Shown piece after piece: positions 151 through 62,735 of a stretch of 64,000 nucleotides of DNA (positions within the stretch are counted from its first letter, which is position 1; each line of letters starts with the position of its first letter). Location: the IMG/VR virus record IMGVR_UViG_3300021963_008171, positions 10,995-74,994 of that record; one strand, given 5' to 3'. This stretch comes from a virus. Its lineage: Duplodnaviria > Heunggongvirae > Uroviricota > Caudoviricetes. The notes beneath the pieces are model-generated. The model did not search any database. It worked only from the letters and a program-made list of their open reading frames with translations, and had not been told where the DNA came from. A program made the position numbers and the translations under genes.

Positions 151-777
151 ATGAAATATCTAAAGAATTTTAAATCCTTATTTGAAAGTGATGATCCTGG
201 ACATTCCGCCAGGGATATCTTTGATATCTGGGAGGTCTACAAGGTACGAGGACCCGGAATAGGCCACACCAGCGAAGAATACTTGAAAAAAATAGATTGG
301 GAGATGGGAGATCATCTAGACACTCCCGACCATCATGTTAAGGTGTATTCAGCAGATGGGTTTCATGAAGACGGCACGGAATTTCAAGCAGAGTATATGG
401 TAATAGATGACAACATTACAGAACTGGATTTGGATAATTTAGAAATTGTTAATTCCGAACGTTTCGAGCAAACGATCTATGATAAAATAGAATCTGATGG
501 ACATATTGTTAAACGCGCAAAAAACTTCAACACGTTAGAGACCTCTGCAGAATGGGACGATATTATTGGGATGTTTAAAAAAGCTTCTGATAATGGATCA
601 AGAACAGATGGAAAAATAACCATCGATGATAAAGAATACGAAACGGACCTAATTCTGTCTTGGGGTATTGTTAAATTGAAAGACGATAAAAAGGAATATT
701 GGTGGAACCCTAATACGAAAATATTATACATTAAATCCAAGCAGGGAGAGGAAATTTGGGCAATCTACAATCGTTGA
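151..777 (+). CDS. hypothetical protein with the recurrent N-terminal motif (MKYLKNFKSLFE)
   Basis: ATG 151 is in frame with track ORF 133..777 and lies directly after the motif. 208 codons. Confidence 0.6.
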   Translation: MKYLKNFKSLFESDDPGHSARDIFDIWEVYKVRGPGIGHTSEEYLKKIDWEMGDHLDTPDHHVKVYSADGFHEDGTEFQAEYMVIDDNITELDLDNLEIVNSERFEQTIYDKIESDGHIVKRAKNFNTLETSAEWDDIIGMFKKASDNGSRTDGKITIDDKEYETDLILSWGIVKLKDDKKEYWWNPNTKILYIKSKQGEEIWAIYNR

Positions 778-965
778 TTCTCTATCAAATTACTTATCTC
801 TAACATCTTGGATTCATCCATAACAATTTCCTCGTTATCGTCAAAGGCATCTATCGAAAAATGTCCTGAATAAAAATCCTCGGTTAACATAACGGTGTAT
901 GAATTGCCATCATCAGTGGTAACATTATAGGTTAGATCTGTTTGCATTAATAATACTGTTGCCAT
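765..965 (-). CDS. small acidic hypothetical protein
   Basis: 66-codon ATG ORF immediately downstream of the minus-strand terminator 973-1002. A 13-nt convergent overlap with 151..777 lowers confidence. Confidence 0.35.
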   Translation of the reverse strand: MATVLLMQTDLTYNVTTDDGNSYTVMLTEDFYSGHFSIDAFDDNEEIVMDESKMLEISNLIENQRL

Positions 966-972
966 AGTTCAT

Positions 973-1002
973 AAAAAAAGCGACTGGATATCCAATCGCT
1001 TT
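973..1002 (-). terminator. rho-independent terminator (minus strand)
   Basis: AAAGCGA (977-983) pairs with TCGCTTT (996-1002). Read on the minus strand, the stem is followed by a run of T (A973-A979 on plus). It sits right after the stop of 1025..1312. Confidence 0.65.
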
Positions 1003-1024
1003 ATTTCATTTTAGTAGATTTCCA

Positions 1025-1312
1025 CTACTTTTTAGCTTTTTTAGCTTTAGTTGTTTCAGCCTTCGCCGGTGCCTTTTTAGCAGCTGGTTTTTTTGCTGGT
1101 GCTTTTTTGGTAGCTGGTTTTTTAGCAGCCGGTTTTACCTTTTCGATAACAGCTGGTGCTGCTTCTACTGATACAACGGGTTCTTCTGCCTTTACCTCTA
1201 CAACAGGATCAGCTTTAACTGGCTCAGCCTCTTGGTTTTTTGGTTTTTTGCTAATCTTTGTGTAAGCAAAATAAGCTCCCAAAACTAAAATCGCTAGAAA
1301 TAATACTTGCAT
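1025..1312 (-). CDS. membrane-anchored Lys/Ala/Pro-rich protein (histone-H1/AlgP-like KKPAAKKAPAKK repeats)
   Basis: N-terminal hydrophobic helix MQVLFLAILVLGAYFAY. The C-terminal tail reads AAKKPATKKAPAKKPAAKKAPAKAETTKAKKAKK. Confidence 0.65.
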   Translation of the reverse strand: MQVLFLAILVLGAYFAYTKISKKPKNQEAEPVKADPVVEVKAEEPVVSVEAAPAVIEKVKPAAKKPATKKAPAKKPAAKKAPAKAETTKAKKAKK

Positions 1313-1327
1313 ATTTTTGGTTATTTG

Positions 1328-1338
1328 ATTTATATATC
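1328..1338 (-). promoter_or_regulatory. GATATATAAAT motif on the minus strand
   Basis: Plus-strand ATTTATATATC is the reverse complement of GATATATAAAT, 15 nt upstream of the minus-strand ATG at 1312. Confidence 0.4.
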
Positions 1339-1419
1339 ACTTAATTCTTTCGTTTTTGCATTTTTAATGGGGTCCTGAATCTTTTCAATACATTTGTGAT
1401 AGAATGAAAAAACATTTTT

Positions 1420-60313: not shown

Positions 60314-60725
60314 GGGGATGACATGGCATTTGATCCGGATGTGGATTTTAATACTACACGCAGAGGTATGGTACTCATCCTCTTTAATCTCGGTACAAAC
60401 AAGTAAACGACGTAGAATTATCTACCATGACTTTCGAAGACGCAATGTCTTTCGTAGGTGCTGATTACGCACTAGCTGCCTAATCACTCCCGCACACATC
60501 GTGGGACTTAAAATAGAATGTGTACCAAGGTGTGATTTCTACCCAAAAAGGAATAAGGTCACGTTCAGAGGACTACCTTAATACAAGTGAACTCGACACA
60601 GTTATTGGTAACGATGTCAAAATAGGAACCATTTATTTTGTTAGGCAAGAAAAACTAGCTAAGCGTGTGAGACGTTAGTATTATTATTTCTTTCGGAGAC
60701 CGGGGTTCGAATCCCCGCATCTCCA
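60314..60725 (+). ncRNA. ssrA: tmRNA (transfer-messenger RNA)
   Basis: 5' GGGGATG pairs with CATCTCC (60718-60724), including a G3:U pair. T-arm CGGGG-TTCGAAT-CCCCG. Discriminator A at 60725. The internal tag frame ends ...GGT GCT GAT TAC GCA CTA GCT GCC TAA (GADYALAA*, stop 60481-60483). Confidence 0.9.
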
Positions 60726-60737
60726 CAAATTTTATAT

Positions 60738-60812
60738 AGCGGGGTAGAGCAGTGGTAGCTCGTTGGGCTCATAACCCAAAGGTCGCAGGTTCGAATCCTG
60801 TCCCCGCAACCA
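60738..60812 (+). tRNA. initiator-type tRNA-Met (CAU) with encoded CCA
   Basis: The cloverleaf folds by hand: acceptor AGCGGGG/CCCCGCA with a 1:72 A-A mismatch, an A11:U24 pair, anticodon stem TTGGG/CCCAA carrying three G:C pairs next to loop CTCATAA, and T-arm GCAGG-TTCGAAT-CCTGT. 75 nt. Confidence 0.9.
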
Positions 60813-60823
60813 AATTTAAAATC

Positions 60824-61207
60824 ATGTCTACCAATTGTAATATCTGCAGCGAAAAATGTTTTGGAAAGGATGGATATGATGGAAGTTGCTGTACAATAGA
60901 AGCACGTGACTATATCATAGGTCCACATAAGGACGCTAAGCAATTCATTCAATCATTATCATTAAAGCTCGGAAGAGAGATCAGCTACGAGTCAATATTC
61001 ATTGATTACGAAGAAGGAAAAAGACTTTTTCCCGACAAATCCGCATGGCAAAGCCCAACTTCATATCCTGCATTCAGAGTTGATCTAAATAATCCAAGAA
61101 ACCCCTGCATCTTTTACAATACAGTAGTTAAATCATGTATGGTATATGATATCAGACCAGAAACATGCGAGACATATCAATGCGATTATCTTAAAAGTAA
61201 TCTCTGA
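60824..61207 (+). CDS. YkgJ-family (CxxCxxCC) Cys-cluster protein
   Basis: ATG 60824 is in frame with track ORF 60752, whose 5' part overlaps the tRNA. CNICSEKCFGKDGYDGSCC...CIFYN...CMVYDIRPETCETYQC. Confidence 0.6.
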   Translation: MSTNCNICSEKCFGKDGYDGSCCTIEARDYIIGPHKDAKQFIQSLSLKLGREISYESIFIDYEEGKRLFPDKSAWQSPTSYPAFRVDLNNPRNPCIFYNTVVKSCMVYDIRPETCETYQCDYLKSNL

Positions 61208-61214
61208 TATATAG
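61206..61214 (+). promoter_or_regulatory. GATATATAG motif variant
   Basis: Overlaps the stop of the previous gene. Lies 19 nt before ATG 61234. Confidence 0.3.
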
Positions 61215-61233
61215 ATGCAAAACACGTGCATCA

Positions 61234-62046
61234 ATGATTAAGAAGTATCTAGATTTTATTAATGAATCCATAAAATATCTTTCAACCCAAGAGTTTTTCA
61301 ATTGGCTAGAGGAAAGAAAGGACCATGTATTCATTGCTCTTGACACAGAAACTACTGGGCTAAAAGGTCCAAGGATAGATCAATTGACTCAAATTGCTGC
61401 TATTGCTTTTTCTTTTGATTATGATTCTCTATCATTCTTGGAAATTAGCAGATACAATAAGAAGATCTCTTTAACTCCAGAAATTAAAGCATTAAAACAA
61501 TTACCGGATTCTGAAATTCAGGGAGCACTTAAATATAACAGATACGGCGTAAGCGGAGGAAAATTCCAAGACGAGCAGGTAGTTATAAACGAATTGGTAG
61601 ATTTTGTTGCACAATTTGATAAAAGCATTTTATTAATTCAAAATTCACCATTTGATATGCCAATGATTAATGTCAGGGCTAAATTTCAAAGACTGAATTC
61701 AGAGGTATTTGATACAAAAGATTTCTTTGCATATTTCTTAATACCAACTCTTCAAAGATTAGCAGATACTGATCCAGAAGCCCAAAGTATATTGGATACT
61801 TTCGGTAAATCATCAAGTGGGAAGCTTTACACATCATCGCTTCCTAAGGTAGCTGCAGGACTTGGTGTTGACCCGAGTGGAGCGCATGATGCATTATACG
61901 ATTGCTCATATATGGTTGAAACCCTGGAAAAAGCGTTTCAAATAGTTAGAAATAATTCAGATTTTGACAGAAAAGATTTAATCAGACAAAGAATACTAAC
62001 AGATCGCTATATGAAAGCGAAGAATAAGGCAGAAGGAAGACTATGA
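61234..62046 (+). CDS. DEDD-family (DnaQ-like) 3'-5' exonuclease
   Basis: ExoI VFIALDTETTGL, ExoII LLIQNSPFDMPMI and ExoIII GAHDALYDCSYM. The N-terminus is MIKKYLDFINESI. Confidence 0.85.
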   Translation: MIKKYLDFINESIKYLSTQEFFNWLEERKDHVFIALDTETTGLKGPRIDQLTQIAAIAFSFDYDSLSFLEISRYNKKISLTPEIKALKQLPDSEIQGALKYNRYGVSGGKFQDEQVVINELVDFVAQFDKSILLIQNSPFDMPMINVRAKFQRLNSEVFDTKDFFAYFLIPTLQRLADTDPEAQSILDTFGKSSSGKLYTSSLPKVAAGLGVDPSGAHDALYDCSYMVETLEKAFQIVRNNSDFDRKDLIRQRILTDRYMKAKNKAEGRL

Positions 62047-62735
62047 TAAAGAACTTTTCATCATACATTAATGAGCAGTATTCCAATCCAAAAGATGTGG
62101 TTAATCTGAAATATGGCACCCCTCAGATGGATCACAAAGAAAAAATGGATCAAGGATCATCCCTATATTCCTCCGTGAAAGACACAGATCTTTGGAAAAA
62201 GTGGACTTCCACCTTTCCTCCGGCGCAGAGTTCAGAAGATGCTATAAAATCCCTAGAAGAATTAATTCTAATTGGATCTTCACAAACCCCAGAGGATAAA
62301 GAATTTGTTAAAGATGCTGAACATGATATGAAAGGCATTTTCGTTAAATTTTTAAAACTCAACGGAGTAGATAATATAACTGTAGAAGATCTTAAAGAGA
62401 TATCCAAAGAATTAGATCCTATAACATTTCATCTGAAATACATTTTTAATTATCCAAGACCTCACCAATTAGCAGGCGAATTGGAAATCCCGTTATACCC
62501 TTCTCAAACAACAGATGCATGCAGTCCTGCATATCCGTCGGGTCATTCTATAGATTCATTCGTTATGGGAGGATTAATAGGTAAAAAAATACCTCAACTC
62601 CGAAACGATGTTCTAAAACTGTCTGAAAAAATTTCCAGATCTAGACTTCAAGGAGGTATACATTTTTCTTTCGATCAGGAGTTTGGGAGACAAATTGCAG
62701 AGGATATTTTAAACCTTGATTTTTTGTCTCTCTAG
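62043..62735 (+). CDS. PAP2-superfamily phosphatase
   Basis: NYPRPHQ (the RP of motif 1), YPSGHS, and SRSRLQGGIHFSFD (SRx5Hx3D). The N-terminus is MIKNFSSYINEQ. Confidence 0.75.
   Translation: MIKNFSSYINEQYSNPKDVVNLKYGTPQMDHKEKMDQGSSLYSSVKDTDLWKKWTSTFPPAQSSEDAIKSLEELILIGSSQTPEDKEFVKDAEHDMKGIFVKFLKLNGVDNITVEDLKEISKELDPITFHLKYIFNYPRPHQLAGELEIPLYPSQTTDACSPAYPSGHSIDSFVMGGLIGKKIPQLRNDVLKLSEKISRSRLQGGIHFSFDQEFGRQIAEDILNLDFLSL

Follow-up and report, generated by a model that had tools for sequence, protein, structure and literature searches.

The internal proteins of phage T4 carry an N-terminal capsid-targeting sequence (CTS). IPII and IPIII begin MKTYQEFIAE/A and IPI begins MKTFKEFTST...ITE/A (AF158101; the slash marks the cut), and for IPIII the first 10 residues suffice for incorporation into the head, residues 4 and 7 determining targeting and residues 8 and 10 processing by gp21 (PMC9026906). 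In phage P1 the first 30 residues of DarB are sufficient to bring this anti-defence protein into the capsid for injection, and they do the same for a heterologous reporter (PMC9024508). Many internal head proteins of phiKZ, 201phi2-1 and SPN3US are cut after Glu by a gp21-related prohead protease, and the ejection-protein paralogues of giant phages can have identical N-termini (PMC5694885). In T4-type phages, PeSL cassettes provide a conserved promoter directly in front of many small variable genes and may contribute to shuffling (PMC2839356). Here I describe a short N-terminal peptide, the tag, on nine otherwise unrelated proteins encoded in a 64,000-nucleotide stretch of tailed-phage DNA (IMG/VR record IMGVR_UViG_3300021963_008171, positions 10,995 to 74,994; hereafter the window). 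On balance the tag is probably a T4-type CTS, that is, a short cleavable propeptide, hugely expanded in this lineage.

Searches of the accessible literature for tag strings and for CTSs in huge phages returned no description of the tag. The best-supported reading of the sequences is that it represents an apparently undescribed and greatly expanded version of the known capsid-targeting type of signal.

Nine unrelated proteins with a common N-terminus

A first-pass annotation of the window had reported the shared N-termini, and all nine are present, on the + strand, at 151, 22746, 22988, 26025, 28512, 29196, 29463, 61234 and 62043. When every ATG-initiated open reading frame (ORF) of at least 35 aa in the six frames was scanned with a position matrix and a regular expression for the class-B form of the tag (see below), the matches were exactly these nine starts. 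The enrichment also survives comparison with shuffled controls. Shuffling residues 2-14 within each N-terminus gave a mean of 0.09 matches (at most 2 in 2000 shuffles), and a permutation of columns across genes, under which gene starts retain their position-specific composition, gave a mean of 0.38 (at most 4), against nine observed. Together with controls at internal positions, these tests rule out chance or composition bias. A matrix trained only on the related genome LR756502.1 scored six of the nine tags at 4 or above where 0.01 would be expected, and the class-B pattern was found at four window starts against 0.024 expected.

Two forms of the tag can be distinguished. Class A has M-K-x-(L/I)-x-x-(F/Y) over residues 1-7, whereas class B is a one-residue-shifted form, (F/Y)xx(F/Y)(I/L)xE, seen in the window as YLDFINE, FSSYINE, FGTFLNE and FNSFLSE. 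The hybrid tag MKHLKLFTPFINEQ, from a gene just outside the window, shows that the two classes are one signal.

Each tag is given here up to its predicted boundary. The gene at 151-777 (208 aa, acidic; no Pfam or PHROG match) begins with MKYLKNFKSLFE (151-186), which scores 16.6 with the LR756502.1 matrix. The tag MKHIRIFE (22746-22769; score 19.6) opens a basic 80-aa protein encoded at 22746-22988, and MKHLLEYLDFSE (22988-23023) an acidic 213-aa protein at 22988-23629 that matches phrog_5162 (function unknown). A DUF5661 protein of 96 aa (26025-26315) has MEKIKSFNSFLSE (26025-26063), and a 226-aa protein with a Fib_succ_major domain (28512-29192) has MKHLNTFNE (28512-28538). Next come an 80-aa protein (29196-29438) with the class-B tag MEIKRFGTFLNE (F..FLxE; 29196-29231) and a 128-aa protein of pI 4.1 (29463-29849) with MKHLKDFDSIVE (29463-29498). 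The last two tags are both class B: MIKKYLDFINE (Y..FIxE; 61234-61266) on the DEDD exonuclease (61234-62046), the window tag closest to YQEFIAE of T4, and MIKNFSSYINE (62043-62075) on the PAP2 phosphatase (62043-62735), whose orthologue in locus L027 begins MIKAFSEYINE.

The sequences downstream of the tags are as unrelated as the annotation had held them to be. After 14 residues were trimmed, the best BLASTP E value among all pairs of the nine was 0.17; Pfam assigns four of them to different domains (DUF5661, Fib_succ_major, RNase_T and PAP2) and returned no match for the other five. Two further tagged genes lie just upstream of the window, bringing the number on one 85-kb contig to 11. One product begins MKHLKVYEAY (L003:3873); the other, which carries the hybrid tag (L003:4189), is a lysozyme-like protein homologous to the 'structural lysozymes' of jumbo phages.

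The tag in related megaphages

The window has a GC content of 35%, shows no visible Shine-Dalgarno (SD) sequences and encodes Bacteroidota-style signal peptides. It is contained in an 85,545-bp metagenomic ENA contig (ERZ27296343:k141_1586432, by exact protein matches), and a nucleotide search of the window against the 50,697 phage records of INPHARED gave no match. The closest annotated relatives of its proteins belong to two uncultured phages, LR745206.1 (634 kb) and LR756502.1 (642 kb), which rank with the largest genomes reported by Al-Shayeb et al. (2020). In that study the largest genomes all form the 'Mahaphage' clade, and those above 634 kb are predicted to replicate in Bacteroidetes (PMC7162821). 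Nearer orthologues of the exonuclease (60-65% identity) occur on contigs of 403, 434 and 453 kb, and LR756502.1 has counterparts of only 6 of the 94 window proteins (E<1e-5). Given these relatives and the size of the contigs that carry exonuclease orthologues, I conclude that the window comes from a tailed megaphage related to the 'Mahaphage' clade and is rich in accessory genes.

Across the whole of LR756502.1, about 112-130 of 952 crude gene calls (~14% for the higher count) begin with a tag, against an expectation of 0.15 from internal positions and 1.3-7 from shuffles; the class-B pattern alone occurs 16 times against 0.8 expected. Typical examples are MKHLKKYNES, MKHLKTYKIFES and M.IKKY.EFINEE, and tagged genes occur in arrays. 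With 16 residues removed, 112 tagged proteins fall into 86 BLASTP clusters, 79 of them singletons, and the few that have Pfam domains all have different ones (PPK2, T4 RNA ligase 1, methyltransferase, 2H/Acb1-like, SET, HNH, DHH and CBM). On this clustering and the Pfam diversity a single paralogous family was rejected. A further 83 IMG/VR loci of the clade have the tag at 123 of their 1,795 gene starts, and the first 150 kb of LR756501.1 (735 kb) has class-B tags only, such as MDKYNNFINEA, on 6 of 161 genes.

The tagged proteins of LR756502.1 are small (median 158 aa), more acidic than the untagged ones (median pI 5.1 versus 5.9, p=1e-7) and seldom contain a hydrophobic, transmembrane (TM)-like segment (15 of 18 residues; 1 of 130 tagged versus 54 of 822 untagged). 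The tags themselves are charged or amphipathic, without a hydrophobic stretch, and on these grounds a Sec, Tat or lipoprotein signal peptide was rejected. The true signal peptides of the window, in genes 3847-11669, differ from the tags.

Conservation at the level of the peptide

Within the tags, synonymous codons are used freely. His is encoded by CAC (55%) or CAT (45%), Lys-5 by AAA (51%) or AAG (49%) and Glu by GAA (60%) or GAG (40%), while Leu appears as TTA, CTA, TTG and CTT and Ser as both TCN and AGY. The first 36 nt of the window tags are on average 41% identical; the earlier remark that several tagged genes begin ATGAAGCAC at the DNA level holds for three of them (22988, 28512 and 29463) and not for the set as a whole. 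Among the five MKH/MKY genes of the window, codon positions 1 and 2 are 72% identical versus 47% for position 3. The varied synonymous codons and the low identity at third positions place the conservation at the peptide level; selection acts on the tag peptide, not on the RNA.

The same figures bear on the alternative raised in the first-pass annotation, a constraint on translation initiation arising from AT or codon bias, which neither the shuffle controls nor the synonymous variation support. In its fuller form this explanation supposes an RNA-level constraint on nearly leaderless mRNAs in a host that does without SD sequences, maybe linked to the phage's own ribosomal protein S21. It would account for the ATATATA motif that ends 3-4 nt before the ATG of many tagged genes, for the missing SD sequences beside an S21 gene on the contig, and for codon preferences that exceed genome usage (AAA at codon 2, a C-ending codon 3 and ATA at codon 9). 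However, Leu (TTA/CTA) and Ser (TCN/AGY) codons vary freely, third positions are much less conserved than the others, nothing at the RNA level obviously explains the aromatic residues at positions 7 and 10 or the Glu, and column permutations that keep the composition of gene starts yield 0.38 matches, not nine. Moreover, the same proximal promoter precedes 140 untagged megaphage genes, and 52 tagged genes are without it. I therefore consider such a constraint very unlikely, and a DNA or RNA element as the main cause was ruled out by the synonymous variation and the low third-position identity.

A functionless peptide left behind by history is most unlikely as well. The proposal would be that a promoter and the first codons spread together by recombination, as a PeSL-like cassette, or that the tags are the remnant of a large paralogous family. 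PeSL-type shuffling is documented in T4-type phages (PMC2839356), the tagged genes of LR756502.1 stand in arrays, orthologues have exchanged tag variants, and promoter and tag are statistically associated. Yet the first 36 nt are only 41% identical in the DNA, and 112 tagged megaphage proteins form 86 clusters with different Pfam domains. Moreover, orthologues as distant as 46% identity still carry the tag when the linker behind it has diverged, which indicates purifying selection on the peptide. A PeSL-like mobile DNA cassette was rejected as a candidate on the 36-nt figure and on the 47% versus 72% at third and other codon positions: PeSL is conserved DNA that ends before the ATG, whereas the tag is a conserved peptide with variable codons.

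How the tag behaves among orthologues is clearest for the exonuclease. Seventy orthologues (46-94% identity) retain the tag up to an invariant Glu, as M..KKY..F(I/L)NE followed by SIKYLS. Three of them instead have the alternative variant MKHLKQFELFE and then AIRNF at the identical junction, and in one distant orthologue MKYIKTFE precedes NKIWYK. Gene 29463 likewise has an orthologue, in locus L027, that keeps the tag (MKHLKKFNNLFE), although the next ~25 residues, the linker, cannot be aligned. A 157-aa protein encoded beside the portal gene exists in both a tagged form (MKHLRKFEEL-DYSTY) and an untagged form (MNYSTY). In an AlphaFold2 model of the exonuclease built from a 59-sequence alignment (pLDDT 89.5), residues 1-10 have a pLDDT of 38 and values exceed 84 from residue 11 onward, so the model places the tag, unpacked, outside the enzyme fold. 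By its conservation among orthologues, its exchange of variants and its unpacked residues 1-10, the tag is therefore a linear motif, conserved yet exchangeable, with Glu at its end.

A further pair of homologues differs in the presence of the tag. The untagged 226-aa product of window positions 1420-2100 (+) is 37% identical to a tagged 256-aa protein of LR756502.1 (MKYLSKYNMFIEQ), which is encoded two genes upstream of the portal.

Promoter-like motifs at tagged and structural genes

The motif ATATATA(A/G) lies upstream of six of the nine tagged genes of the window and of 6 of the 85 untagged ones (p=8e-5). Usually 3-4 nt separate its end from the ATG, a spacing that would give nearly leaderless mRNAs. 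The promoter-like sequence ATATATAA (all +) is found at 139-146, 4 nt before gene 151 and with leaderless-type spacing; at 22734-22741, 4 nt before gene 22746; at 28501-28508, 3 nt before gene 28512; and at 29443-29450, 12 nt before gene 29463. A second version, ATATATAG (+), stands 3 nt before gene 29196 (29185-29192) and 19 nt before gene 61234 (61207-61214), where it would serve the operon 61234-62735.

In LR756502.1, TATATA begins 10-12 nt before the ATG of ~125 genes, and it occurs within 25 nt of 60 of 112 tagged genes versus 140 of 840 untagged ones (odds ratio 5.8, p=3e-16). There TAATATATA is located 25-35 nt upstream of the genes for the portal, TerL, major capsid protein (MCP), protease, sheath and one tail fibre; for the other tail-fibre gene the distance is 11 nt. 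The occurrence of one motif at structural and tagged genes suggests that the tagged genes are expressed together with the virion genes. The motif also looks similar to the T4 late promoter, TATAAATA.

Resemblance to the T4 system

The tag resembles the T4 CTS in several respects. The CTS too is an N-terminal peptide, of 10-19 residues, on otherwise unrelated proteins; it has M-K-x-hydrophobic/aromatic-x-x-F at positions 1-7; and it ends in a hydrophobic-x-Glu, which in T4 is the type of site that gp21 cleaves. In 62 class-A seeds from LR756502.1, position 4 is L or I and position 7 Y or F in all 62, which is circular, the seed pattern demanding both. The window tags give independent support, in that five of the nine fit this pattern directly and the other four keep its spacing at a shift of one residue. 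Among LR756502.1 tags defined by residues 1-7 only, 78% have a hydrophobic-x-Glu with Glu at positions 8-14, compared with 21% of other N-termini and 15% of internal windows, and all nine window tags have such a site. The class-B tags YLDFINE and YNNFINEA share Y, F, I and E, spaced alike, with YQEFIAE(A) of T4, at a shift of 0-1 residue from the N-terminus.

There are also differences. The three T4 proteins read here (IPI, IPII and IPIII) contrast with 11 tags on an 85-kb contig and ~130 in a 642-kb relative, and the tagged proteins include recognisable enzymes and are mostly acidic rather than basic. The Glu is usually at position 9-13 in the tags and at 10 in T4, and the P1' residue that follows is mostly Ser, against Ala in T4.

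The tag can also be compared with other described systems. The DarB signal of P1 is N-terminal and targets the capsid, as is proposed for the tag; judged by its description, it differs in being known on one very large protein, not as a short consensus across many, and P1 has no separate scaffold. In phiKZ, 201phi2-1 and SPN3US most propeptides exceed 100 residues, the motif at which they are cleaved is (A/S/G)-x-E, and ~8-20 proteins are processed rather than more than 100, with no short common tag described.

Relatives of the window phage encode, like T4, a T4-type portal, MCP and TerL and a gp21-like protease. In LR756502.1, TerL matches T4 gp17 (4e-48), the portal is Portal_T4 (1e-57) and the MCP is Pfam Gp23 (3.7e-28). 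A gene located between those for portal and MCP, at 225272-227371 (L010:25272-27371), encodes a 699-aa protease-scaffold-like protein whose N-terminal domain matches phrog_207, 'head maturation protease' (6e-28). Aligned by hhalign with T4 gp21, the clade protease profile gave a probability of 77.7% (E 1.9e-5), and the catalytic His and Ser motifs correspond (GEFDHP to GELNHP and VSSRAAG to VSSRGLG). By profile and motif the protein is assigned to the gp21 (Peptidase_S77) family, with a Pfam S77 score of 20.2 bits that is below the cut-off of 27. Sequence searches of the PDB with the clade protease gave no meaningful match.

The C-terminal half of this protease contains tandem 14-residue repeats, YSEY(I/L/V)AE(N/H)LDKNI, with an acidic tract after them. 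The copy number is 9-13 (mode 11) in 77 clade members from IMG/VR loci and 13 in LR756501.1, and the fusion of protease and repeats is highly conserved across the clade (other examples are at L020:7790-9922 and L022:7806-9917). Each repeat fits the class-B pattern, as (F/Y)xx(F/Y)(I/L/V)xE, with a core, YSEYIAE, that resembles the T4 CTS core YQEFIAE; a rough estimate puts the chance of a 14-residue repeat unit matching the pattern at ~0.01. I infer that the repeat region may be a scaffold degraded by the protease after Glu, and that the tag would be a mimic of one repeat. Such an arrangement, known here from sequence, would differ from T4 in having a scaffold-like region that consists of tandem repeats and forms one protein with the protease.

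At 229975-231351 of LR756502.1 (L010:29975-31351) lies the gene for a second peptidase (phrog_4191, 3e-64), which by eye looks like a metallopeptidase. It is conserved two genes downstream of the MCP gene, and the gene in between encodes a protein with an NFACT-R RNA-binding domain.

A proposed capsid-targeting propeptide

Putting these observations together, tagged proteins would be made alongside the structural proteins, from the same ATATATA-type promoter, whose transcripts would often be nearly leaderless. Residues 1-7 of the tag, or the shifted (F/Y)-x-x-(F/Y) form, would then bind the scaffolding core of the assembling prohead, formed by the ~11 tandem Y-S-E-Y-(I/L/V)-A-E repeats in the C-terminal half of the gp21-like protease. 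At the hydrophobic-x-Glu motif (residues 8-13) the protease would cut behind the Glu, and the mature, soluble and mostly acidic protein would stay in the head and be injected with the DNA. Scaffold binding, cleavage, packaging and injection are predicted steps. The first-pass annotation had proposed a shared targeting or processing signal at the peptide level, with the T4 CTS as its first candidate, and this is the reading I favour because the tag has T4-like residues at positions 4 and 7 and a hydrophobic-x-Glu, is under peptide-level selection, is modular and unpacked, and occurs in a clade with a T4-type head module. It is favoured further because the promoter is common to structural genes and because the tagged proteins are soluble and acidic, one of them being a lysozyme like the 'structural lysozymes' of jumbo phages.

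Several points weigh against capsid targeting. The clade has no cultured member, the nearest cultured phages share ~25% MCP identity, and the support comes from sequence and a structural model. The ~130 tagged proteins in one genome are far above the few CTS proteins of T4 read here and unprecedented in number, and among them are many enzymes not packaged by T4 (RNA ligase, PPK2 and methyltransferases). At the hydrophobic-x-Glu sites P3 is often F or Y and not L or I, notably in many class-A tags. A matrix derived from the scaffold repeats showed no enrichment at N-termini and did not score the tags, and the likeness of tag and repeat is therefore at the level of pattern only. As for an I-N-E/N maturation site in the MCP, alignment to T4 gp23 puts the T4 site opposite a Glu-free region, and the site could not be placed. 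The late sigma factor gp55 of T4 was not detected in LR756502.1 by phmmer or Pfam; the label 'late promoter' therefore derives only from the motif's position upstream of structural genes, from which the temporal class is deduced. Lastly, head genes, including the protease and scaffold, were not found on the 85.5-kb contig of the window. MCP homologue searches and contig look-ups led only to other samples and did not recover the head module of the window phage, and IMG/VR scans gave exonuclease relatives on 80-434-kb contigs and 80 MCP loci with no contig common to both, so that the link to the protease depends on relatives that share few genes with the window.

One alternative is an N-terminal sorting or interaction handle that is retained, not necessarily cleaved, and unrelated to the capsid. 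It might dock proteins to a phage hub protein, a chaperone or a protease, or it might be a signal for import into a compartment built by the phage or a tag for timed degradation. A handle would suit a conserved linear motif that AlphaFold leaves unpacked, the large number of tagged proteins, enzymes expected in the cytoplasm (exonuclease, RNA ligase, PPK2, methyltransferase, SET and HNH proteins) and the tagless orthologues of one head-module protein. No candidate gene for a receptor or compartment was identified, however, and a handle leaves unexplained the fixed Glu boundary, the enrichment of hydrophobic-x-Glu, the positional match to the T4 CTS and the promoter shared with structural genes. 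I regard it as unlikely.

Taken furthest, the capsid-targeting reading is that megaphages of this Bacteroidota-infecting clade may load about one tenth of their proteome, more than 100 small, soluble and mostly acidic proteins, into the capsid for co-injection with the DNA; this is a tentative extension, and I would put it at somewhat short of an even chance. The cargo may include nucleases, phosphatases, lysozyme, RNA ligase and an Acb1-like phosphodiesterase. The argument from packaging capacity is plausible because SPN3US packages more than 40 MDa of ejection proteins (PMC7411985).

All knowledge of megaphages of 400-735 kb comes from metagenomes, and only a minority of their genes have been assigned a function. 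Were the capsid-targeting reading correct, the tag would be a sequence-readable label of the injected 'first-strike' arsenal of uncultivated giant phages, predicting which orphan proteins are virion cargo delivered at infection and are likely anti-defence or host-takeover effectors. The internal-protein system of T4 would then be ancient, extending from enterobacterial T-even phages to Bacteroidota megaphages and scalable by two orders of magnitude, and the tag would be a portable protein-delivery tag for engineering. The predicted mature N-termini are exact and can be checked in metaproteomes: SIKYLSTQEFFNWLEER (exonuclease), SDDPGHSAR, NLEESDVMDTSGDSPVMEPVENK, QYSNPK and GNKSGEMTPDEVYQR.

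Other features of the window and its contig

Beyond the window, the contig carries sugar-metabolism genes and the gene for ribosomal protein S21 on one side and collagen-like tail-fibre genes with an apparent tRNA array on the other. The S21 gene (L003:8332-8526), ~1.5 kb upstream of the window start, encodes a protein 41% identical to the LR756502.1 copy and has the promoter-like sequence ATATATAAG just upstream. At the downstream end (L001:19200-20482), inspection of the raw sequence by eye suggests an array of tRNA-like sequences. Its units are separated by ~100-nt structured-looking spacers, and four large tail-fibre or structural genes with collagen-like repeats directly precede it. Within the window, the region 60314-60812 (+) holds a tmRNA gene (Rfam RF00023, 80 bits, full length), missed by ARAGORN and directly followed by tRNA-Met (60738-60812), with a promoter-like motif of the ATATATA type ~37 nt upstream of 60318.

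At 26845-28470 (+) a TROVE/Ro60-like protein is encoded (Pfam TROVE 2e-6; phrog_850 5e-42). The 530-nt ORF-free gap 5' of this gene (region 26316-28470, +) could hold a Y-RNA-like partner; it gave no Rfam match at the gathering threshold.

Seven consecutive genes at 3847-11669 (+) encode proteins with Bacteroidota-type signal or lipoprotein peptides, among them proteins of 551 and 764 aa, and the gene at 10224-11669 specifies a long Ser/Ala tract followed by a Glu/Lys low-complexity tract. These proteins may modify the host surface. Finally, a large glycan or sugar-modification island occupies 31862-57011 on both strands. Pfam supports one radical-SAM gene (weakly), two Glyco_transf_7 enzymes with Laminin_G_3 and a methyltransferase; two more radical-SAM-like genes, epimerases, GDSL-like and P-loop sulfotransferase-like genes and an internally duplicated 831-aa protein (42946-45441) were recognised only by eye, in the translations.

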